A DNA stretch of 64,000 nucleotides from Escherichia coli (GTDB taxonomy: Bacteria > Pseudomonadota > Gammaproteobacteria > Enterobacterales > Enterobacteriaceae): assembly GCF_003019035.1 (NCBI RefSeq), contig NZ_CP027447.1; one strand, given 5' to 3'. Position numbers and translations under genes: made by a program. Below the pieces are notes generated by a model. It saw only the letters and a list, made by a program, of their open reading frames with translations. It searched no databases and had not been told where the DNA came from. Shown one piece after another: positions 34,517 through 48,146 of the stretch. Numbering within the stretch: position 1 is the first letter of the stretch; each line of letters starts with the position of its first letter.

Positions 34517-35134
34517 ATGAACCGCTTTGTGGTGGCCGAACCACTGTGGTGTACAGGATGTAATACCTGTCTCGCTGCCTGTTCGGACGTGCATAAAACG
34601 CAAGGTTTACAGCAACACCCGCGCCTGGCCCTGGCGAAGACGTCAACACTCACTGCCCCTGTCGTGTGTCATCACTGTGAGGAAGCCCCTTGCCTGCAGG
34701 TCTGCCCGGTCAATGCCATCTCCCAGAGGGACGATGCGATCCAACTCAACGAAAGCCTCTGTATTGGCTGCAAGCTTTGCGCCGTGGTCTGCCCATTTGG
34801 CGCAATCAGCGCTTCAGGAAGCCGTCCGGTGAATGCCCCTGCGCAATATGTTTTTCAGGCTGAGGGCTCACTCAAAGACGGCGAAGAAAACGCGCCAACC
34901 CAACATGCTTTGCTGCGCTGGGAACCGGGTGTCCAGACCGTCGCGGTGAAATGCGACCTGTGTGATTTCTTGCCAGAAGGTCCGGCCTGCGTTCGCGCTT
35001 GTCCGAATCAGGCGTTACGGCTGATCACCGACGATAGCCTGCAACGTCAGATGAAAGAAAAACAGCGCCTTGCCGCAAGCTGGTTTGCCAATGGCGGGGA
35101 GGATCCCCTTTCCCTCACTCAGGAGCAACGCTAA
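34517..35134 (+). CDS. hyfA: Hydrogenase-4 component A (4Fe-4S ferredoxin-type)
   Basis: 205 aa from MNRFVVAEP with AAGGAG ribosome-binding site; multiple CxxCxxCxxxCP motifs. Confidence 0.93.
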   Translation: MNRFVVAEPLWCTGCNTCLAACSDVHKTQGLQQHPRLALAKTSTLTAPVVCHHCEEAPCLQVCPVNAISQRDDAIQLNESLCIGCKLCAVVCPFGAISASGSRPVNAPAQYVFQAEGSLKDGEENAPTQHALLRWEPGVQTVAVKCDLCDFLPEGPACVRACPNQALRLITDDSLQRQMKEKQRLAASWFANGGEDPLSLTQEQR

Positions 35135-37152
35135 TGGATGCCCTGCAATTATTAACCTGGTCGCTGATCCTCTATCTGTTTGCCAGTCTGGCTTCGCTAT
35201 TTTTACTCGGTCTGGACAGATTGGCTATTAAGCTTTCCGGCATCACATCGCTGGTGGGCGGCGTGATTGGCATCATCAGCGGAATTACGCAATTACATGC
35301 AGGCGTAACTTTAGCCGCCCGTTTTGCCACACCTTTTGAATTTGCCGATTTAACCCTGCGAATGGATAGCCTCTCGGCATTTATGGTGCTGGTTATCTCC
35401 TTGCTGGTGGTGGTTTGTTCGCTCTATTCATTGACTTATATGCGCGAATACGAGGGTAAAGGCGCGGCGGCGATGGGCTTCTTTATGAATCTTTTCATCG
35501 CATCGATGGTTGCCCTGCTGGTGATGGATAACGCTTTTTGGTTCATCGTGCTGTTTGAAATGATGTCGCTGTCTTCCTGGTTTCTGGTCATTGCCAGGCA
35601 GGATAAAACGTCGATCAACGCTGGCATGCTCTACTTTTTTATCGCCCACGCCGGATCGGTGCTGATTATGATCGCCTTCTTGCTGATGGGGCGCGAAAGC
35701 GGCAGCCTCGATTTTGCCAGTTTCCGCACGCATTCACTTTCTCCGGGGCTGGCGTCGGCGGTGTTCCTGCTGGCCTTCTTCGGTTTTGGCGCGAAAGCCG
35801 GGATGATGCCGTTGCACAGCTGGTTGCCGCGCGCTCACCCTGCCGCACCATCGCACGCTTCGGCGTTGATGTCTGGCGTAATGGTCAAAATCGGTATTTT
35901 CGGCATCCTTAAAGTAGCGATGGATCTGCTGGCGCAAACGGGTTTGCCGCTGTGGTGGGGCATTCTGGTGATGGCGATCGGCGCAATCTCCGCGCTCCTG
36001 GGCGTGCTGTATGCGCTGGCGGAACAGGATATCAAACGGCTGCTGGCCTGGAGTACCGTCGAAAACGTCGGCATTATTTTGCTGGCGGTCGGTGTGGCGA
36101 TGGTCGGTCTGTCACTGCACGACCCGCTGCTCACCGTTGTTGGACTGCTCGGCGCGCTGTTTCATCTGCTCAACCATGCGCTGTTCAAAGGGCTGCTGTT
36201 TCTCGGCGCGGGTGCGATTATTTCGCGTTTGCATACCCACGACATGGAAAAAATGGGGGCACTGGCGAAACGTATGCCGTGGACAGCCGCAGCATGCCTG
36301 ATTGGTTGCCTCGCGATATCAGCCATTCCTCCGCTGAATGGTTTTATCAGCGAATGGTACACCTGGCAGTCGCTGTTCTCACTAAGTCGTGTGGAAGCCG
36401 TAGCGCTACAACTTGCGGGTCCTATTGCTATGGTGATGCTGGCAGTCACTGGTGGGCTGGCAGTAATGTGCTTCGTCAAAATGTACGGCATTACTTTCTG
36501 TGGTGCGCCGCGCAGTACACACGCTGAAGAGGCACAGGACGTGCCAAATACGATGATCGTCGCCATGCTACTGCTCGCGGCACTCTGCGTATTCATTGCG
36601 CTTAGTGCCAGTTGGCTGGCACCGAAGATAATGCACATTGCCCATGCGTTTACCAATACCCCTCCCGTCACTGTCGCCAGCGGAATAGCACTTGTACCCG
36701 GCACGTTTCATACACGGGTCACTCCCTCATTACTGTTGCTGTTACTACTGGCGATGCCTTTGCTGCCTGGCCTTTACTGGCTGTGGTGTCGTTCGCGCCG
36801 CGCAGCGTTTCGTCGCACAGGAGATGCCTGGGCATGCGGCTACGGCTGGGATAATGCGATGGCCCCGTCAGGCAATGGCGTGATGCAGCCGCTGCGTGTG
36901 GTCTTTTGTGCGCTATTTCGTCTACGACAACAGCTCGACCCTACGCTGAGGCTGAACAAAAGTCTTGCGCACGTCACCGCCAGGGCTCAGAGCACAGAAC
37001 CCTTCTGGGATGAGCGGGTGATCCACCCCATCGTGAGCGCCACCCAACGGCTGGCCAAAGAAATACAGCATCTGCAAAGCGGCGACTTTCGTCTCTATTG
37101 CCTGTATGTGGTCGCCGCACTGGTTGTGCTGCTAATCGCTATTGCCGTCTAA
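35134..37152 (+). CDS. hyfB: Hydrogenase-4 component B (NuoL/MrpA-like antiporter subunit)
   Basis: 672-aa polytopic membrane ORF. Confidence 0.93.
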   Translation: MDALQLLTWSLILYLFASLASLFLLGLDRLAIKLSGITSLVGGVIGIISGITQLHAGVTLAARFATPFEFADLTLRMDSLSAFMVLVISLLVVVCSLYSLTYMREYEGKGAAAMGFFMNLFIASMVALLVMDNAFWFIVLFEMMSLSSWFLVIARQDKTSINAGMLYFFIAHAGSVLIMIAFLLMGRESGSLDFASFRTHSLSPGLASAVFLLAFFGFGAKAGMMPLHSWLPRAHPAAPSHASALMSGVMVKIGIFGILKVAMDLLAQTGLPLWWGILVMAIGAISALLGVLYALAEQDIKRLLAWSTVENVGIILLAVGVAMVGLSLHDPLLTVVGLLGALFHLLNHALFKGLLFLGAGAIISRLHTHDMEKMGALAKRMPWTAAACLIGCLAISAIPPLNGFISEWYTWQSLFSLSRVEAVALQLAGPIAMVMLAVTGGLAVMCFVKMYGITFCGAPRSTHAEEAQDVPNTMIVAMLLLAALCVFIALSASWLAPKIMHIAHAFTNTPPVTVASGIALVPGTFHTRVTPSLLLLLLLAMPLLPGLYWLWCRSRRAAFRRTGDAWACGYGWDNAMAPSGNGVMQPLRVVFCALFRLRQQLDPTLRLNKSLAHVTARAQSTEPFWDERVIHPIVSATQRLAKEIQHLQSGDFRLYCLYVVAALVVLLIAIAV

Positions 37153-37162
37153 GGAAATCACC

Positions 37163-38110
37163 ATGAGACAAACTCTTTGCGACGGATATCTGGTCATTTT
37201 TGCGTTAGCACAGGCCGTGATTCTGCTGGTGCTAACCCCGCTTTTTACGGGGATTTCCCGGCAGATACGCGCGCGAATGCACTCCCGTCGCGGACCGGGG
37301 ATCTGGCAGGATTATCGCGATATCCACAAACTGTTTAAACGCCAGGAAGTTGCGCCGACATCTTCAGGTCTGATGTTCCGCCTGATGCCGTGGGTATTAA
37401 TCAGCAGCATGCTGGTGCTGGCGATGGCCCTGCCACTATTTATTACCGTTTCCCCTTTTGCGGGCGGCGGCGATCTGATCACCCTTATCTATCTTCTTGC
37501 CCTGTTTCGTTTTTTCTTTGCTCTTTCCGGGCTGGATACCGGAAGCCCGTTTGCGGGAGTCGGTGCCAGTCGCGAGTTGACGCTCGGCATTCTGGTCGAA
37601 CCCATGCTCATTCTCTCACTGCTGGTATTGGCGCTGATAGCGGATTCCACGCATATCGAGATGATCAGCAAGACGCTGGCGACGGGCTGGAACTCGCCGC
37701 TAACCACCGTACTGGCGTTACTGGCCTGTGGTTTTGCCTGCTTCATTGAGATGGGAAAAATTCCCTTTGATGTTGCTGAAGCAGAACAGGAATTACAGGA
37801 AGGCCCGCTGACCGAATATTCCGGTGCCGGGCTGGCGCTGGCGAAGTTGGGGCTGGGGCTGAAACAGGTCGTGATGGCATCACTGTTTGTGGCCCTGTTT
37901 CTGCCCTTTGGGCGCGCGCAAGAGCTTTCTCTCACCTGCCTGCTGACTTCACTTGTCGTTACGCTGCTCAAGGTTTTGCTGATTTTTGTTCTGGCCTCTA
38001 TCGCAGAAAACACGCGGGCACGCGGGCGTTTTTTACTCATTCACCATGTGACCTGGCTTGGCTTCAGCCTTGCTGCGCTTGCCTGGGTCTTCTGGTTAAC
38101 CGGTCTGTAA
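37163..38110 (+). CDS. hyfC: Hydrogenase-4 component C (NuoH-like membrane subunit)
   Basis: 315 aa from MRQTLCDGYLVIFALAQ. Confidence 0.92.
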   Translation: MRQTLCDGYLVIFALAQAVILLVLTPLFTGISRQIRARMHSRRGPGIWQDYRDIHKLFKRQEVAPTSSGLMFRLMPWVLISSMLVLAMALPLFITVSPFAGGGDLITLIYLLALFRFFFALSGLDTGSPFAGVGASRELTLGILVEPMLILSLLVLALIADSTHIEMISKTLATGWNSPLTTVLALLACGFACFIEMGKIPFDVAEAEQELQEGPLTEYSGAGLALAKLGLGLKQVVMASLFVALFLPFGRAQELSLTCLLTSLVVTLLKVLLIFVLASIAENTRARGRFLLIHHVTWLGFSLAALAWVFWLTGL

Positions 38111-38126
38111 GGAGCACTGACGGAAT

Positions 38127-39566
38127 ATGGAAAATCTTGCTCTGACGACGTTATTGCTGCCTTTTATCGGCGCACTGGTCGTTTCGTTTTCGCCACAACG
38201 TCGGGCCGCCGAATGGGGGATTTTGTTCGCCGCGCTGACCACGCTGTGCATGTTGTCGCTGATCTCCGCGTTTTATCAGGCCGATAAAGTTGCCGTCACG
38301 TTGACGTTGGTCCACGTGGGGGATGTGGCGTTGTTTGGCCTGGTCATTGATCGCGTGAGTACGCTGATTCTGTTTGTGGTGGTGTTCCTCGGTTTGCTGG
38401 TCACGATCTACTCCACGGGTTATCTGACGGATAAAAATCGCGAACACCCGCATAACGGCACGAATCGTTATTACGCATTTTTGCTGGTTTTTATCGGCGC
38501 GATGGCGGGACTGGTACTCTCCTCGACGCTGCTCGGTCAGTTGTTGTTTTTTGAAATTACGGGCGGCTGCTCCTGGGCGTTGATCAGTTATTACCAGAGC
38601 GATAAAGCGCAGCGTTCAGCACTAAAAGCGTTACTTATCACTCATATCGGTTCGCTGGGGTTGTATCTTGCCGCCGCCACGCTGTTTTTGCAGACCGGAA
38701 CGTTTGCGCTTAGCGCGATGAGCGAGTTACACGGCGACGCACGTTATCTGGTTTATGGCGGCATCCTGTTTGCCGCGTGGGGGAAATCGGCCCAGCTACC
38801 GATGCAAGCGTGGCTACCGGATGCAATGGAAGCGCCAACACCGATCAGCGCCTATCTCCACGCCGCATCGATGGTGAAAGTGGGCGTTTACATTTTTGCC
38901 CGTGCCATTATCGACGGCGGCAATATCCCGCATGTGATTGGCGGCGTTGGCATGGTTATGGCACTGGTCACCATTCTTTACGGCTTCCTGATGTATTTGC
39001 CACAGCAGGATATGAAGCGGTTGCTGGCCTGGTCGACCATCACTCAACTTGGCTGGATGTTTTTCGGCTTGTCGCTCTCCATCTTCGGCTCGCGGCTGGC
39101 GCTGGAGGGCAGCATCGCCTACATCGTCAACCACGCGTTCGCTAAAAGCCTATTTTTCCTTGTAGCAGGTGCGCTGAGTTACAGCTGCGGCACGCGCTTG
39201 TTGCCGCGTCTGCGTGGCGTATTGCACACCCTGCCGTTGCCAGGCGTGGGTTTCTGCGTAGCCGCGCTGGCGATTACCGGCGTACCGCCGTTCAACGGCT
39301 TCTTCAGTAAATTCCCGCTGTTTGCCGCCGGTTTTGCGTTGTCAGTGGAGTACTGGATCCTGCTGCCCGCCATGATTCTGCTGATGATTGAATCGGTCGC
39401 CAGTTTCGCCTGGTTTATTCGCTGGTTTGGTCGCGTCGTGCCTGGCAAACCGAGCGAGGCCGTCGCCGATGCCGCACCGCTGCCAGGATCAATGCGCCTG
39501 GTGTTGATTGTACTGATTGTGATGTCGCTGATTTCCAGCGTAATCGCCGCGACCTGGTTGCAGTAA
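38127..39566 (+). CDS. hyfD: Hydrogenase-4 component D (NuoM/N-like antiporter subunit)
   Basis: 479-aa membrane ORF. Confidence 0.92.
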   Translation: MENLALTTLLLPFIGALVVSFSPQRRAAEWGILFAALTTLCMLSLISAFYQADKVAVTLTLVHVGDVALFGLVIDRVSTLILFVVVFLGLLVTIYSTGYLTDKNREHPHNGTNRYYAFLLVFIGAMAGLVLSSTLLGQLLFFEITGGCSWALISYYQSDKAQRSALKALLITHIGSLGLYLAAATLFLQTGTFALSAMSELHGDARYLVYGGILFAAWGKSAQLPMQAWLPDAMEAPTPISAYLHAASMVKVGVYIFARAIIDGGNIPHVIGGVGMVMALVTILYGFLMYLPQQDMKRLLAWSTITQLGWMFFGLSLSIFGSRLALEGSIAYIVNHAFAKSLFFLVAGALSYSCGTRLLPRLRGVLHTLPLPGVGFCVAALAITGVPPFNGFFSKFPLFAAGFALSVEYWILLPAMILLMIESVASFAWFIRWFGRVVPGKPSEAVADAAPLPGSMRLVLIVLIVMSLISSVIAATWLQ

Positions 39567-39577
39567 GGAGATGATGA

Positions 39578-40228
39578 ATGACCGGTTCTATGATCGTAAA
39601 TAATCTGGCGGGACTGATGATGCTGACATCGCTGTTTGTGATTAGCGTCAAAAGCTATCGCCTGTCATGCGGATTTTACGCCTGCCAGTCGCTGGTGCTG
39701 GTGTCTATTTTCGCCACCCTCTCGTGCCTGTTCGTCGCAGAGCAACTGCTGATCTGGTCCGCCAGCGCCTTTATCACCAAAGTGCTGCTGGTACCGTTAA
39801 TCATGATTTACGCTGCACGAAATATTCCCCAGAACATCCCGGAAAAAGCGTTATTCGGTCCGGCAATGATGGCATTGCTCGCGGCATTAATTGTCCTGCT
39901 TTGCGCATTTGTCGTTCAGCCCGTGAAGCTACCGATGGCTACCGGGCTGAAACCGGCGCTGGCGGTGGCGTTAGGTCATTTTCTGCTTGGCCTGCTGTGC
40001 ATTGTCAGCCAGCGCAATATCCTGCGGCAAATTTTTGGTTACTGCCTGATGGAAAACGGCTCCCATCTGGTGCTGGCGCTTCTTGCCTGGCGTGCACCGG
40101 AACTGGTGGAAATTGGTATCGCTACCGACGCCATCTTCGCCGTCATTGTGATGGTGTTACTGGCAAGAAAAATATGGCGTACCCACGGCACGCTGGACGT
40201 GAACAACTTGACCGCGCTGAAGGGATAA
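39578..40228 (+). CDS. hyfE: Hydrogenase-4 component E (membrane subunit)
   Basis: 216-aa membrane ORF. Confidence 0.92.
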
Positions 40229-40232
40229 TGAG

Positions 40233-41813
40233 ATGAGTTATTCTGTGATGTTCGCTTTACTCCTGCTCACGCCGCTGCTTTTTTCGCTGCTCTGTTTTGC
40301 CTGCCGGAAACGGGGGCACTCTGCGACTTGCGCGGTGACAGTATTACATAGCTTAGGGATCACACTGCTGCTGATTCTGACACTGTGGGTGGTCCAAACT
40401 GCCGCTGATGCGGGAGAAATATTCGCTGCGGGACTGTGGCTTCATATTGATGGTCTGGGCGGTTTGTTCCTCGCCATTCTTGGTGTGATTGGCTTTCTCA
40501 CCGGTGTTTACTCGATTGGCTACATGCGTCATGAAGTGGCACACGGCGAGCTTTCACCCGTTACGCTATGCGATTACTACGGTTTCTTCCATCTGTTTTT
40601 GTTCACCATGCTGCTGGTTGTTACCAGCAATAACCTGATTGTGATGTGGGCGGCGATCGAAGCCACCACCTTAAGCTCGGCGTTTCTGGTAGGCATTTAC
40701 GGTCAGCGTTCATCGCTGGAAGCTGCATGGAAGTACATCATTATTTGTACTGTTGGTGTCGCTTTTGGTCTGTTCGGTACCGTGCTGGTATACGCCAACG
40801 CCGCCAGCGTTATGCCGCAGGCAGAAATGGCGATATTCTGGAGCGAGGTTCTTAAGCAATCGTCCTTGCTTGACCCAACATTAATGCTGTTGGCCTTTGT
40901 GTTTGTGCTAATTGGCTTTGGCACCAAAACCGGGCTATTTCCCATGCACGCCTGGCTGCCGGATGCTCACAGTGAAGCGCCGAGTCCGGTCAGCGCCCTG
41001 CTCTCCGCCGTATTGCTGAACTGCGCGCTGTTGGTGCTGATTCGCTATTACATCATTATTTGCCAGGCCATCGGCAGCGATTTCCCCAACCGGTTGTTGC
41101 TCATCTTCGGCATGTTGTCGGTTGCCGTGGCGGCATTTTTCATTCTGGTACAGCGGGACATTAAGCGTCTGCTGGCGTACTCCAGCGTGGAGAACATGGG
41201 ACTGGTCGCGGTGGCGCTAGGCATTGGCGGGCCGCTGGGAATTTTTGCCGCGCTGCTGCACACCTTAAACCACAGTCTGGCAAAAACGCTGCTGTTCTGC
41301 GGTTCCGGCAATGTACTGCTCAAGTACGGCACGCGCGATCTCAACGTCGTCTGCGGAATGCTCAAAATCATGCCATTTACCGCCGTGCTGTTTGGCGGCG
41401 GTGCGCTGGCGCTGGCCGGGATGCCGCCCTTCAACATTTTTCTTAGCGAATTTATGACCGTTACCGCAGGGCTGGCGCGTAATCATCTGCTGCTTATCGT
41501 CCTGCTGTTATTGCTGTTAACGCTGGTGCTGGCGGGCCTGGTACGGATGGCTGCGCGGGTGTTAATGGCGAAACCGCCGCAGGCCGTTAACCGGGGTGAA
41601 CTTGGCTGGTTGACCACCTCGCCAATGGTGATTCTGCTGGTCATGATGCTGGCGATGGGAACGCATATTCCACAACCTGTCATCAGGATCCTGGCAGGCG
41701 CTTCCACTATAGTCCTCTCAGGGACGCACGACCTGCCTGCACAACGTAGCACCTGGCATGATTTTTTGCCTTCAGGCACCGCATCTGTTTCGGAGAAACA
41801 CAGTGAACGTTAA
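40233..41813 (+). CDS. hyfF: Hydrogenase-4 component F (NuoM/N-like antiporter subunit)
   Basis: 526-aa membrane ORF. Confidence 0.92.
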
Positions 41814-43518
41814 TTCATCGTCAAATCGTGGCGAAGCGATTCTCGCCGCCCTGAAAACGCAGTTCCCCGGCGCGGTGCTGGATGAAGAGCGACAAACGCC
41901 TGAACAGGTCACCATTACGGTGAAAATCAATCTGCTGCCTGACGTTGTACATTATCTTTATTATCAACATGATGGCTGGCTTCCGGTCCTGTTTGGCAAC
42001 GACGAGCGGACACTTAATGGTCATTACGCGGTTTATTATGCCCTTTCAATGGAAGGGGCCGAAAAATGCTGGATCGTGGTGAAGGCACTGGTCGATGCCG
42101 ACAGTCGGGAGTTTCCGTCAGTCACACCGCGCGTCCCTGCCGCGGTCTGGGGCGAGCGAGAAATTCGCGATATGTACGGGCTGATTCCGGTTGGCCTGCC
42201 GGATCAGCGTCGGCTGGTGTTGCCCGATGACTGGCCGGAAGATATGCATCCGCTGCGCAAAGACGCGATGGATTATCGACTGCGCCCAGAACCGACGACT
42301 GATACCGAAACGTATCCGTTTATCAACGAGGGCAACAGCGATGCGCGGGTGATCCCTGTCGGCCCGCTGCATATCACCTCCGATGAACCAGGTCACTTCC
42401 GCTTGTTTGTGGATGGCGAGCAAATTGTCGATGCTGATTACCGCCTGTTTTATGTCCATCGCGGCATGGAGAAACTGGCAGAAACGCGGATGGGCTACAA
42501 CGAAGTGACCTTCTTGTCGGACCGCGTGTGTGGGATTTGCGGTTTTGCCCACAGTGTGGCCTATACCAACTCGGTTGAAAATGCACTGGGGATTGAGGTG
42601 CCGCAACGAGCGCATACTATTCGCTCGATTCTGCTGGAAGTCGAACGGCTGCATAGTCATTTGCTCAACCTTGGCCTCTCCTGCCATTTTGTTGGTTTTG
42701 ATACCGGCTTTATGCAATTTTTCCGCGTGCGGGAAAAGTCGATGACGATGGCGGAATTGCTGACCGGGTCGCGTAAAACCTACGGTCTGAATCTGATTGG
42801 TGGTGTTCGCCGCGATATTCTCAAAGAGCAACGTCTGCAAACGCTGAAACTGGTGCGCGAGATGCGCGCCGACGTGTCGGAGCTGGTAGAGATGCTGCTT
42901 GCCACGCCGAATATGGAACAACGCACTCAGGGCATTGGCATTCTCGACCGACAAATCGCCCGTGATTATAGCCCCGTAGGGCCGCTGATCCGCGGCAGTG
43001 GTTTTGCCCGTGATTTGCGCTTTGATCACCCCTACGCCGACTACGGCAATATTCCCAAAACGCTGTTTACCTTTACCGGCGGCGATGTCTTCTCCCGCGT
43101 GATGGTCCGTGTCAAAGAGACGTTTGATTCGCTGGCAATGCTGGAATTTGCCCTCGACAACATGCCGGATACCCCACTGCTGACCGAAGGCTTTAGCTAT
43201 AAACCTCACGCATTCGCGCTGGGCTTTGTTGAAGCGCCACGCGGTGAAGACGTGCACTGGAGCATGCTCGGTGATAACCAAAAATTGTTCCGCTGGCGCT
43301 GTCGTGCCGCCACCTACGCCAACTGGCCAGTGCTGCGTTACATGCTGCGCGGCAATACCGTTTCTGACGCACCGCTGATTATCGGTAGCCTTGATCCCTG
43401 CTACTCCTGTACCGACCGTGTGACGCTGGTTGATGTGCGCAAGCGCCAGTCAAAAACCGTGCCGTATAAAGAGATCGAACGCTACGGCATTGATCGTAAC
43501 CGTTCGCCGCTGAAGTAA
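41803..43518 (+). CDS. hyfG: Hydrogenase-4 large [NiFe] subunit HyfG
   Basis: Start tentatively placed at GTG 41803 (preceded by GGAG), overlapping the hyfF end; N-terminal and C-terminal Ni-binding Cys motifs ([19 protein letters not shown]); exact start uncertain (ORF track opens at 41758). Confidence 0.85.
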
Positions 43519-43527
43519 GGACAGAAA

Positions 43528-44073
43528 ATGCTGAAGTTACTGAAAACTATTATGCGCGCCGGAACCGCGACGGTGAAATATCCCTTCGCGCCACTGGAGG
43601 TCAGCCCAGGCTTTCGCGGGAAACCGGACCTGATGCCCAGCCAATGTATTGCCTGCGGTGCCTGCGCCTGTGCTTGTCCGGCAAATGCGCTGACTATCCA
43701 GACCGACGACCAGCAAAATACGCGCACCTGGCAGCTCTATCTGGGGCGTTGTATTTACTGCGGACGTTGTGAAGAAGTGTGCCCGACCAGAGCCATTCAG
43801 CTTACCAATAACTTTGAACTGACCGTCACCAATAAAGCCGATCTCTATACCCGCGCGACGTTCCATCTACAACGTTGCAGCCGTTGCGAACGCCCGTTTG
43901 CCCCGAAAAAAACCGTCGCACTGGCTGCAGAACTGTTGGCACAGCAACAAAATGCACCACAAAACCGCGAAATGTTACGGGCGCAAGCGAGCGTCTGCCC
44001 GGAATGCAAACAACGCGCGACGCTGATCAACGACGACACAGATGAACCGCTGGTGGCTAAGGAGCAGCTATGA
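43528..44073 (+). CDS. hyfH: Hydrogenase-4 component H (2x[4Fe-4S] ferredoxin-like)
   Basis: 181-aa ORF with two CxxCxxCxxxCP motifs. Confidence 0.93.
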
Positions 44074-44828
44074 GTCCAGTGCTTACGCAACATGTCAGCC
44101 AGCCCATAACGCTGGACGAGCAAACGCAAAAGATGAAGCAGCATTTGCTACAGGATATCCGTCGCTCGGCTTACGTTTATCGCGTCGATTGCGGCGGCTG
44201 CAACGCCTGCGAAATCGAAATTTTTGCCGCCATCACACCCGTATTCGACGCAGAACGTTTTGGCATTAAGGTTGTTTCATCACCGCGTCACGCCGATATT
44301 TTGTTATTTACTGGCGCAGTCACCCGGGCGATGCGTATGCCTGCACTTCGGGCATATGAGTCTGCCCCCGATCATAAAATCTGTGTTTCCTACGGCGCGT
44401 GCGGTGTCGGCGGCGGTATTTTCCACGATCTTTACAGCGTCTGGGGCGGCAGCGACACCATTGTCCCCATTGATGTTTGGATCCCCGGCTGCCCGCCAAC
44501 ACCGGCCGCCACCATTCACGGTTTCGCCGTGGCGCTCGGTTTGCTGCAACAGAAGATTCACGCGGTGGATTATCGCGATCCCACCGGGGTGACCATGCAA
44601 CCGCTGTGGCCGCAGATCCCGCCATCACAGCGTATCGCCATTGAGCGAGAAGCGAGGCGGCTGGCGGGCTATCGTCAAGGGCGAGAAATTTGCGATCGGC
44701 TCCTGCGCCATTTAAGCGACGATCCTACAGGAAATCGGGTTAACACCTGGTTGCGCGAAGCTGACGATCCACGTCTCAATAGTATCGTTCAGCAACTCTT
44801 TCGCGTTCTCCGGGGGTTACATGGCTGA
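44070..44828 (+). CDS. hyfI: Hydrogenase-4 small subunit HyfI (NuoB-like)
   Basis: 252-aa ORF; conserved Cys ([12 protein letters not shown]). Confidence 0.93.
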
Positions 44829-45234
44829 GGCGTGCGGGGAAATTGTTTTCTGGACGCTGCGAAAAAAGTTTGTCGCCAGTAGCGACGAGATGCCGGAACA
44901 CAGCTCCCAGGTAATGTATTACTCGCTGGCTATCGGCCATCACGTTGGCGTGATTGATTGTCTGAATGTCGCCTTCCGCTGCCCACTGACGGAATACGAA
45001 GATTGGCTTGCACAGGTCGAAGTGGAGCAAGCCCGACGTAAGATGCTGGGGGTGATGACTTTTGGTGAGATTGTTATTGACGCCAGCCACACCGCCCTGT
45101 TGACCCGGGCATTCGCGCCACTGGCGGATGACGCGACGTCGGCGTGGCAGGCGCGTAGCATTCAATTCATTCATCTGTTGGATGAAATTGTGCAGGAACC
45201 GGTCATCTATCTGATGGCCAGAAAAATTGCGTGA
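44821..45234 (+). CDS. hyfJ: Hydrogenase-4 component J (HycH-like maturation factor)
   Basis: 137-aa ORF; operon position. Confidence 0.9.
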
Positions 45235-45263
45235 GAAGGATTTCTCATTAATAAGGACTGTTG

Positions 45264-47276
45264 ATGGCTATGTCAGACGAGGCGATGTTTGCCCCGCCGC
45301 AAGGAATAACAATTGAAGCGGTAAACGGAATGCTCGCGGAGCGGTTAGCACAGAAACACGGCAAGGCGTCTTTATTACGCGCCTTCATCCCGCTGCCGCC
45401 GCCGTTCAGCCCGGTACAACTTATTGAACTGCATGTTCTCAAAAGCAACTTCTATTACCGCTACCATGATGATGGCAGCGATGTGACGGCAACAACAGAG
45501 TATCAGGGTGAGATGGTCGATTATTCGCGCCACGCCGTCCTTCTCGGCAGTAGTGGAATGGCGGAGCTACGCTTTATTCGCACCCACGGCAGTCGTTTTA
45601 CTCCCCAGGATTGCACACTGTTTAACTGGCTGGCACACATAATCACTCCGGTTCTGCAATCATGGCTCAATGATGAAGAACAGCAGGTGGCGCTGCGTTT
45701 GCTGGAGAAAGATCGCGATCATCATCGGGTACTGGTGGATATCACTAATGCAGTGTTGTCACATCTTGATCTCGACGATCTGATCGCTGACGTCGCTCGT
45801 GAGATCCATCATTTTTTCGGTCTGGCTTCAGTCAGTATGGTACTGGGCGATCATCGAAAGAACGAGAAGTTCAGCCTGTGGTGCAGCGATCTTTCTGCCT
45901 CACATTGTGCGTGTCTGCCACGCAATATGGCTGGCGACAGTGTATTGCTGACACAAACGCTACAAACCCGACAACCGACCTTGACGCACCGTGCAGACGA
46001 TCTGTTTCTCTGGCAACGCGACCCGTTATTACACTTACTTGCATCTAACGGCTGCGAATCTGCGCTCCTTATACCGCTCACCTTTGGCAACCATACACCG
46101 GGTGCATTGTTGCTGGCGCATACCTCTTCCACTCTCTTTAGTGAGGAAAACTGCCAGCTACTACAACATATTGCCGATCGCATCGCTATTGCCGTTGGCA
46201 ATGCCGATGCCTGGCGCAGCATGACCGATTTGCAGGAAAGCTTGCAGCAAGAAAACCACCAGCTTAGCGAGCAGCTCCTTTCGAATCTGGGCGTCGGTGA
46301 CATTATCTATCAAAGCCAGGCAATGGAAGACCTGCTCCAGCAGGTAGATATTGTGGCGAAGAGCGACAGTACGGTGTTGATTTGTGGTGAAACCGGAACC
46401 GGCAAAGAGGTGATCGCCAGAGCGATCCATCAACTTAGCCCACGACGCGACAAGCCACTGGTCAAAATCAACTGCGCTGCCATCCCCGCCAGTCTTCTGG
46501 AAAGTGAGTTATTCGGTCATGACAAAGGGGCATTTACTGGTGCGATTAATACCCATCGTGGTCGTTTTGAAATTGCCGATGGCGGCACGTTGTTTCTCGA
46601 TGAAATTGGCGATCTGCCGTTAGAACTTCAGCCTAAACTGCTGCGCGTATTGCAGGAACGGGAGATTGAGCGTCTCGGCGGGAGTAGAACGATCCCGGTA
46701 AATGTCAGAGTCATTGCCGCCACCAACCGTGATTTGTGGCAAATGGTTGAAGATCGCCAGTTTCGCAGCGATCTCTTTTATCGCCTGAATGTCTTCCCAC
46801 TGGAACTGCCGCCACTGCGCGACCGTCCGGAAGATATCCCTCTTTTAGCAAAGCATTTCACGCAAAAAATGGCGCGCCATATGAATCGCGCAATTGACGC
46901 CATCCCGACCGAGGCGCTACGCCAGTTGATGTCGTGGGACTGGCCGGGCAACGTGCGCGAGCTGGAAAACGTGATTGAGCGAGCGGTACTACTGACTCGC
47001 GGTAACAGTCTGAATTTACATCTTAATGTCCGACAAAGCCGTTTACTGCCGACGCTAAATGAAGATTCAGCACTTCGCAGTTCAATGGCGCAGTTGCTGC
47101 ACCCGACGACGCCAGAGAATGACGAAGAAGAACGTCAGCGCATTGTTCAGGTATTGCGAGAAACCAATGGCATTGTTGCCGGGCCCCGTGGCGCGGCGAC
47201 GCGATTAGGGATGAAGCGCACCACGCTGCTGTCACGAATGCAGCGTCTGGGGATCTCGGTTCGCGAGGTGTTGTAA
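45264..47276 (+). CDS. hyfR: Sigma-54-dependent transcriptional activator HyfR (formate-sensing, FhlA-like)
   Basis: 670 aa from MAMSDEAMF; AAA+ sigma-54 interaction domain ([14 protein letters not shown]) and C-terminal HTH. Confidence 0.93.
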
Positions 47277-47297
47277 TCTGCTTTTGCAGGAGTATTC

Positions 47298-48146
47298 ATG
47301 AGAAACAAACTCTCTTTCGACTTGCAGTTGAGCGCCAGAAAAGCGGCAATCGCTGAACGGATTGCCGCCCATAAAATTGCCCGCAGCAAAGTGTCGGTCT
47401 TTTTAATGGCGATGTCCGCAGGCGTGTTTATGGCGATCGGATTTACTTTTTACCTTACCGTTATCGCCGATGCCCCGTCTTCACAGGCATTAACCCATCT
47501 GGTGGGAGGCCTTTGCTTTACGCTCGGCTTTATTTTGCTGGCGGTTTGCGGCACCAGCCTGTTCACCTCGTCGGTAATGACGGTGATGGCAAAAAGTCGG
47601 GGCGTTATTAGCTGGCGAACATGGCTGATTAATGCACTTCTGGTGGCCTGCGGTAATCTGGCAGGTATTGCCTGTTTCAGTTTGTTAATTTGGTTTTCCG
47701 GGCTGGTGATGAGTGAAAACGCGATGTGGGGAGTCGCGGTTTTACACTGCGCCGAGGGCAAAATGCATCATACATTTACTGAATCAGTCAGCCTCGGCAT
47801 TATGTGCAATCTGATGGTTTGTCTGGCGCTGTGGATGAGTTATTGCGGACGTTCGTTATGCGACAAAATCGTCGCCATGATTTTGCCCATCACCCTGTTT
47901 GTCGCCAGTGGTTTTGAGCACTGTATCGCCAATTTGTTTGTGATTCCGTTCGCCATTGCCATTCGCCATTTCGCCCCTACCTCCTTCTGGCAACTGGCGC
48001 ACAGTAGCGCAGACCATTTTCCGGCACTGACGGTCAGCCATTTTATTACCGCCAATCTGCTCCCGGTGATGCTGGGTAATATTATCGGCGGTGCAGTGCT
48101 GGTGAGTATTTGTTATCGGGCTATTTATTTACGTCAGGAACCCTAA
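47298..48146 (+). CDS. focB: Formate channel FocB (FNT family)
   Basis: 282-aa membrane ORF, formate/nitrite transporter family; downstream of hyfR. Confidence 0.92.
   Translation: MRNKLSFDLQLSARKAAIAERIAAHKIARSKVSVFLMAMSAGVFMAIGFTFYLTVIADAPSSQALTHLVGGLCFTLGFILLAVCGTSLFTSSVMTVMAKSRGVISWRTWLINALLVACGNLAGIACFSLLIWFSGLVMSENAMWGVAVLHCAEGKMHHTFTESVSLGIMCNLMVCLALWMSYCGRSLCDKIVAMILPITLFVASGFEHCIANLFVIPFAIAIRHFAPTSFWQLAHSSADHFPALTVSHFITANLLPVMLGNIIGGAVLVSICYRAIYLRQEP

Follow-up and report, generated by a model that had tools for sequence, protein, structure and literature searches.

The hyfG gene of Escherichia coli very probably starts at a GTG codon overlapping the end of hyfF, in a junction conserved across related genera where translational coupling is plausible

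The window studied here, a stretch of 64,000 nucleotides of Escherichia coli DNA, contains the hyf operon for hydrogenase 4, also called formate hydrogenlyase-2 (FHL-2), whose 12 genes (hyfABCDEFGHIJR-focB) occupy positions 34517-48146 according to the annotation of the identical strain SCU-301. A 1 kb stretch of the window, when searched, proved 100% identical to the SCU-301 chromosome and ~98% identical to K-12-type strains. The gene hyfF (40233..41813, + strand; ORF list and PGAP annotation of SCU-301) encodes the antiporter-like membrane subunit F of hydrogenase 4, a protein of 526 aa that matches the NCBIfam model NF005041 ('hydrogenase 4 subunit F') from end to end (residues 1-526 on model positions 1-526, 1175 bits), and its sequence ends in a TAA stop codon at 41811-41813 (+ strand). 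It is followed on the same strand by hyfG (41803..43518), which encodes the large catalytic subunit of the [NiFe] hydrogenase 4, a NuoC-NuoD-like fusion of 571 aa. The start codon of hyfG is taken to be the GTG at 41803..41805 (+ strand), in frame with the long HyfG ORF and 8 nt ahead of the hyfF stop codon. With this start the two genes overlap by 11 nt (41803..41813, + strand), hyfG being read in the +1 frame relative to hyfF, and a Shine-Dalgarno core, GGAG, lies within the hyfF coding sequence at 41792..41795 (+ strand), separated from the GTG by a spacer of 7 nt. The nearest ATG codons in this frame are one 15 codons 5' of the GTG (41758..41760, + strand), which opens a 586-aa ORF (41758..43518) in the ORF list, and the next in-frame ATG on the 3' side, which corresponds to Met-83 of the protein sequence.

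Of the 12 genes of the operon, hyfG alone lacks an ATG start. Taken in order, the junctions between the genes measure -1, +10, +16, +11, +4, -11, +9, -4, -8, +29 and +21 nt. The GTG start is an ordinary feature that is already annotated and published, and is therefore not new: PGAP places the start of hyfG at GTG 41803 in all 11 E. coli records that we inspected (SCU-301 and 10 others of different lineages), and Finney et al. 2019 give GUG as the initiation codon of E. coli hyfG (PMC7384014). What we add to this knowledge is modest, namely that every junction examined has the GTG together with its ribosome-binding site, and that no other gene of the operon departs from ATG. Still, work that involves cloning, tagging or over-expression of hydrogenase 4 depends on a correct start, and the junction can be put forward as a site at which the translation of two subunits of a large membrane complex may be coupled.

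With the 586-aa ORF as query, HyfG contains PF00329 (residues 54-170), PF00374 (235-303) and PF00346 (312-478 and a second stretch), that is, a NuoC-like domain fused to a NuoD-like / NiFe large-subunit domain, the fusion by which group 4a enzymes (HyfG/HycE type) are recognized. The gene order, with the antiporter-like hyfD, hyfE and hyfF ahead of hyfG and hyfH and hyfI behind it, is likewise the group 4a FHL-2 context. HyfG matches HycE of PDB 7z0s with E = 2e-292, and carries both CxxC motifs that ligate the NiFe site (RxCGxCxxxH type and DPCYSCTDR) as well as a tail of 32 residues after the Arg; a C-terminal assembly peptide of 32 residues is described in PMC7654741.

The ribosome-binding sites separate the candidate start codons well. 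At GTG 41803 the predicted duplex with the anti-Shine-Dalgarno sequence at the 3' end of the 16S rRNA reaches -6.6 kcal/mol, the other 11 genes of the operon lying between -5.1 and -9.3 kcal/mol, and a comparable site is present in all 12. Such a site is not commonplace: GGAG is found 5-9 nt upstream of 1.3% of the 1,916 GTG triplets in the window, and a duplex of -6.6 kcal/mol or lower at 4% of them. The initial annotation had stated that no in-frame ATG occurs close to the conserved N-terminus of HyfG; this is incorrect, as the ATG at 41758, which is the first coordinate of that very annotation, lies 15 codons upstream and opens the 586-aa ORF, although the oversight leaves the conclusion on the GTG start unchanged. 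Were hyfG to start at this ATG, its product would have 586 aa and the first 15 residues would be coded in a 56-nt overlap with hyfF. In its favour, the ATG opens the longest ORF, is of the codon type that initiates most efficiently and is shared by the 7 E. coli genomes compared, and some homologues have N-terminal tails of up to about 20 residues ahead of the first conserved helix. However, the ATG lacks a ribosome-binding site (-1.5 kcal/mol), PGAP never chose it in the records inspected, and its conservation within E. coli is explained by the coding of hyfF, in which C-AT-G-AT specifies the His-Asp of a conserved W-x-D-F. This ATG is very probably unused.

Comparison with other genera weighs in the same direction. 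A scan of genome contigs for HyfF retrieved 8 loci, including four from Citrobacter and those of Klebsiella indica, Phytobacter ursingii, Brenneria and Superficieibacter; in the last of these hyfF is degraded and no hyfG follows it. Four more distant junctions were added from metagenome contigs through exact-protein look-ups, so that the set comprises 12 hyfF-hyfG junctions (E. coli, four Citrobacter, Klebsiella indica, Phytobacter, Brenneria and four metagenome contigs). In 12/12 of them a GGAG(A) is followed after 7-8 nt by a GTG, which in Brenneria and in locus L020 adjoins an in-frame ATG (a GTGATG tandem). GGAGA is invariant in the 8/8 species that were aligned and is found in 4/4 metagenome junctions; in the eight-species alignment, GGAGA and GTGA stand out as invariant blocks from a region that is otherwise 63% identical. 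The position of ATG 41758, on the other hand, is not an ATG in any other genus, and in four taxa (loci L004, L005, L007 and L008) a stop codon interrupts the hyfG frame 11-17 codons 5' of the start.

The pattern of substitutions upstream of the GTG points to a single coding frame. Between 41713 and 41791, variable columns fall on hyfF codon positions 1, 2 and 3 in 12/26, 10/26 and 20/26 cases, respectively, and hyfF position 3 corresponds to position 2 of the hyfG frame. This peak indicates that only hyfF is under coding constraint in this stretch, and the phase near ATG 41758 fits hyfF only. At the protein level, neither the alignment with HycE nor a protein search, for which the N-terminal 200 residues of the 586-aa ORF served as query and which yielded mostly truncated fragments, aligned any homologue to the first ~12 residues of the 15-residue extension that the ATG would add. 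Taking all this together, we regard initiation at 41758 as highly improbable.

We also considered that a programmed frameshift might produce a HyfF-HyfG fusion, an idea prompted by the fact that the hyfG frame is open from 41713 and contains a run of six T at 41761-41766. This was ruled out: the T run is not conserved, a -1 slip would enter the third frame rather than that of hyfG, and in other taxa stops close the hyfG frame upstream.

A start downstream of the GTG fares no better. Residues 2-9 of HyfG are poorly conserved (the first 8-9 residues show little conservation overall), and this would be compatible with an N-terminus whose first 24 residues are never made, translation starting for instance at the in-frame GTG 41875 (Val-25). 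But this GTG lacks a ribosome-binding site (-1.7 kcal/mol), ATG, GTG and TTG are all absent from the stretch that separates it from 41803, and a start at 41875 would drop a 14-residue segment that matches HycE residues 7-20 and is conserved in all orthologues. We find such a start barely credible.

The N-terminus of HyfG was also placed by alignment with its relatives, the check that the initial annotation had proposed. HycE residue 4 pairs with HyfG residue 7 (PDB 7z0s), so that the GTG-initiated protein is 3 residues longer than HycE at its N-terminus, and the GTG is conserved in the other genera. Among the NCBIfam models, no HyfG-specific one reached its cut-off, so that model coordinates do not fix the N-terminus. 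On the 3' side of the overlap, variable columns are spread nearly evenly over the codon positions (9, 7 and 9), so that conservation of the peptide alone is no proof that translation starts exactly at GTG 41803. Together, PGAP, the orthologous loci, the HycE N-terminus and PMC7384014 support the start that the initial annotation had favoured, a GTG at 41803 with GGAG 7 nt ahead, and the sequence confirms its coordinates for the 11-nt overlap; the uncertainty that it attached to the true start was overstated, as comparison settles the matter as far as comparison of sequences can.

Variation within the species contributes little to this question. The junction shows no differences among 7 E. coli genomes between -70 and +28 nt around the hyfG start, and within-species variation is for that reason uninformative about the start. 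When five diverse E. coli genomes were compared over +/-600 nt, only 2 differences were seen between -107 and +29 of the hyfG start, located 71 and 73 nt upstream, against one difference per about 40-60 nt in the rest of the surrounding 1.2 kb. The low variation at about 41696-41831 of the window may reflect dual coding combined with constraint on the initiation region, or chance, given the small sample. The hyf operon is poorly expressed in laboratory strains.

The length of the overlap varies across the 12 junctions. It is of 4 nt (GTGA) in L005, L007, L018 and L019, and of 8 or 11 nt in Brenneria, while in L017 the genes are separated by a 1-nt gap. In three Citrobacter loci and in K. indica the overlap reaches 23 nt, the TGA reading being lost and HyfF running to a TAA within hyfG. 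Compared with Citrobacter, K. indica and Phytobacter, E. coli is missing 12 nt (TTATTCAGACAG) at 41807/41808, in the context GTGAA[TTATTCAGACAG]CGTTAAT, a loss that takes 4 residues from each protein, at the C-terminus of HyfF and at the N-terminus of HyfG, and brings the overlap down from 23 nt to 11. Judged from these alignments, the tight junction is conserved and its 11-nt form is specific to E. coli. What is kept is proximity, as the hyfF stop and the hyfG start lie 1-23 nt apart in 11/12 junctions; only L020 departs from this, and there an assembly error may have misplaced the end called for the upstream gene.

We consider it very probable, from the comparison of these sequences, that hyfG starts at GTG 41803 with GGAG 41792-41795 as its ribosome-binding site. 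A ribosome ending hyfF at 41813 would terminate on top of the hyfG initiation region, and at least partial coupling to the translation of hyfF would be the most likely mechanism. Coupling could follow from termination and reinitiation, from the melting of weak local structure by the upstream ribosome, or from both, and some independent initiation driven by the Shine-Dalgarno sequence might coexist with it; the weaker GUG codon may in addition play a role in setting HyfG levels. That coupling is the dominant mode for hyfG is plausible, with chances that we judge roughly even. Precedents exist in the literature on overlapping genes. Huber et al. 2019 measured strong termination-reinitiation coupling at hyfH/hyfI in E. 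coli, that is, within the same operon (PMC6728339). In Huber et al. 2023, long overlaps are more often in the phase of -8, -11 and -14 nt, subunits of one complex are over-represented among coupled pairs, and distances from -8 to +10 nt are taken as predictive of reinitiation (PMC10666635). At -11 nt, E. coli hyfF/hyfG falls just beyond this range, yet in the favoured phase.

In a partition-function fold of the region from -99 to +30 around the start (window 41704-41832), predicted pairing among the 11 internal hyf junctions peaks at the hyfG initiation region, where its mean is 0.67 and its value at the start codon 0.92, so that the start codon would be mostly base-paired. Short hairpins are predicted over the ribosome-binding site (GUUUC-GGA-GAAAC) and over the start (GUGAA/UUCAU). 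However, the fold is no more stable than that of shuffled sequence (z = -0.47), and the hairpins predicted at the hyfG start are not conserved in Citrobacter, which leaves only a faint sign of pairing above the average.

A different reading accepts GTG 41803 as the start but holds that initiation there is independent of hyfF, the overlap being a by-product of genome compaction and of the lineage-specific 12-nt deletion. The ribosome-binding site of hyfG has a normal strength for the operon, as good as those of the genes that do not overlap, and initiation could for this reason be wholly independent. The overlap length is variable (4, 8/11, 11 and 23 nt, and one 1-nt gap), the RNA structure is, as just described, neither unusually stable nor conserved, and bioBF, one of the five overlapping pairs of E. 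coli in Huber et al., is not coupled (PMC6728339). Nevertheless, stop and start stay within 1-23 nt of each other in all junctions but L020, pairs this close are usually coupled, especially when they encode subunits of one complex (PMC10666635, PMC6728339), hyfH/hyfI is strongly coupled, and the start codon of hyfG is predicted to be mostly paired. Independent initiation is the chief alternative to coupling, though one to which we give less than an even chance.

Returning to a start at GTG 41803 with translation at least partly coupled to hyfF, one can go a step further and propose, tentatively and with somewhat less than an even chance of being right, that a GUG start placed atop the hyfF stop is a selected arrangement rather than the accident of one genome, as it is kept in all 12 junctions. 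It would tie synthesis of the soluble catalytic subunit to the completion of the last subunit of the membrane arm, while the weak codon would cap its level. A GUG start has likewise been stated for hyfG of P. atrosepticum. If the proposal is correct, changing GUG to AUG or uncoupling the two genes would disturb the stoichiometry or the assembly of formate hydrogenlyase-2.

A difference between the window and K-12 lies inside hyfG, and we rate it as more interesting and more valuable than the start codon. Alignment with the K-12-type strain ER1821R reveals a 48-nt segment (42958..43005, + strand) that is kept here and deleted in K-12-type alleles. The segment is flanked by a 10-nt direct repeat, GCCCGTGATT, at 42958-42967 and 43006-43015, and the K-12 allele has cleanly lost 48 nt between the two copies, and with them 16 residues. 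These residues include a VGPxxRxSG motif, which aligns to IARDFSNVGPMVRASGHARD of HycE and to VGPTARGSG of P. furiosus MbhL, and the segment is kept in 7/7 orthologues from other genera; with it, PF00346 scores 170.6 bits, and without it, 129.6 bits. The motif that is missing from K-12 and from about half of the hyf-positive E. coli is therefore one conserved from HycE to the archaeal Mbh.

Both alleles are frequent. In a collection of 5,426 complete E. coli genomes, the hyf region is missing in about a fifth, and the hyfF-hyfG region was matched in 4,294; the segment is present in 2,179 genomes and the exact K-12 deletion junction in 2,113, which together account for 4,292/4,294. Five deletion alleles share one common haplotype around and 3' of the deletion while their 5' parts differ, and this suggests a single origin of the deletion followed by recombination. 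In the genomes of E. coli E2865, UTME-10 and 2010C_5028, hyfI (small subunit), from position 2377 of the locus onward, is annotated as a frameshifted pseudogene. Frameshifted hyfI occurs in 3/5 of the deletion-allele genomes compared and in 3/4 of those that were additionally fetched, which fits the idea that the operon is decaying where the hyfG deletion is carried. In E. coli ET565, hyfF is a pseudogene that is interrupted by an internal stop and falls 117 nt short of its length in the other records.

Repeated attempts to activate the hydrogenase 4 of K-12 have failed, according to Finney et al. 2020 (PMC7654741), where replacing the hyf promoter in K-12 and swapping the C-terminal peptide of HyfG yielded no Hyd-4 hydrogen. 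The searched text of that paper does not mention the hyfG deletion, and in the searchable literature we found no paper linking hyfG to a 16-residue or 48-bp deletion, although an earlier notice, for instance in the original description of 1997, is possible. K-12-type hyfG may be a natural null, and strains like that of the window may encode a functional hydrogenase 4. If so, the 16-codon deletion would be a simple explanation for the fact that hydrogenase 4 of K-12 has never been activated.

Set against the systems known best, the junction described here is very nearly that of K-12, where hyfG (b2487; RefSeq, PMC7384014) has the same GTG start, the same GGAG and the same 11-nt overlap with hyfF. 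Over 120 nt the K-12-type junction and that of the window differ by a single base, located 71 nt ahead of the hyfG start, and the shorter K-12 protein (555 aa versus 571 aa in the window) is due to the internal 48-nt deletion, far from the start. The paralogue hycE, of hydrogenase 3 in formate hydrogenlyase-1 (7z0s/7z0t), encodes a protein that aligns with HyfG over nearly its full length and shares its NuoC-NuoD fusion, its NiFe-binding cysteine motifs and its 32-residue C-terminal peptide, but that begins, as seen in the alignment above, 3 residues later. Its gene starts with ATG and follows hycD and not an antiporter-like gene of the hyfF kind. The closest parallel for the arrangement itself is hyfH/hyfI, which shares with hyfF/hyfG the operon, the co-directional orientation, the overlap of stop and start, a ribosome-binding site that lies inside the upstream gene, and products that belong as subunits to a single complex. 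The two pairs differ in that hyfH/hyfI has a 4-nt ATGA overlap, an ATG start and coupling that has been measured, whereas hyfF/hyfG overlaps by 11 nt and starts with GTG.
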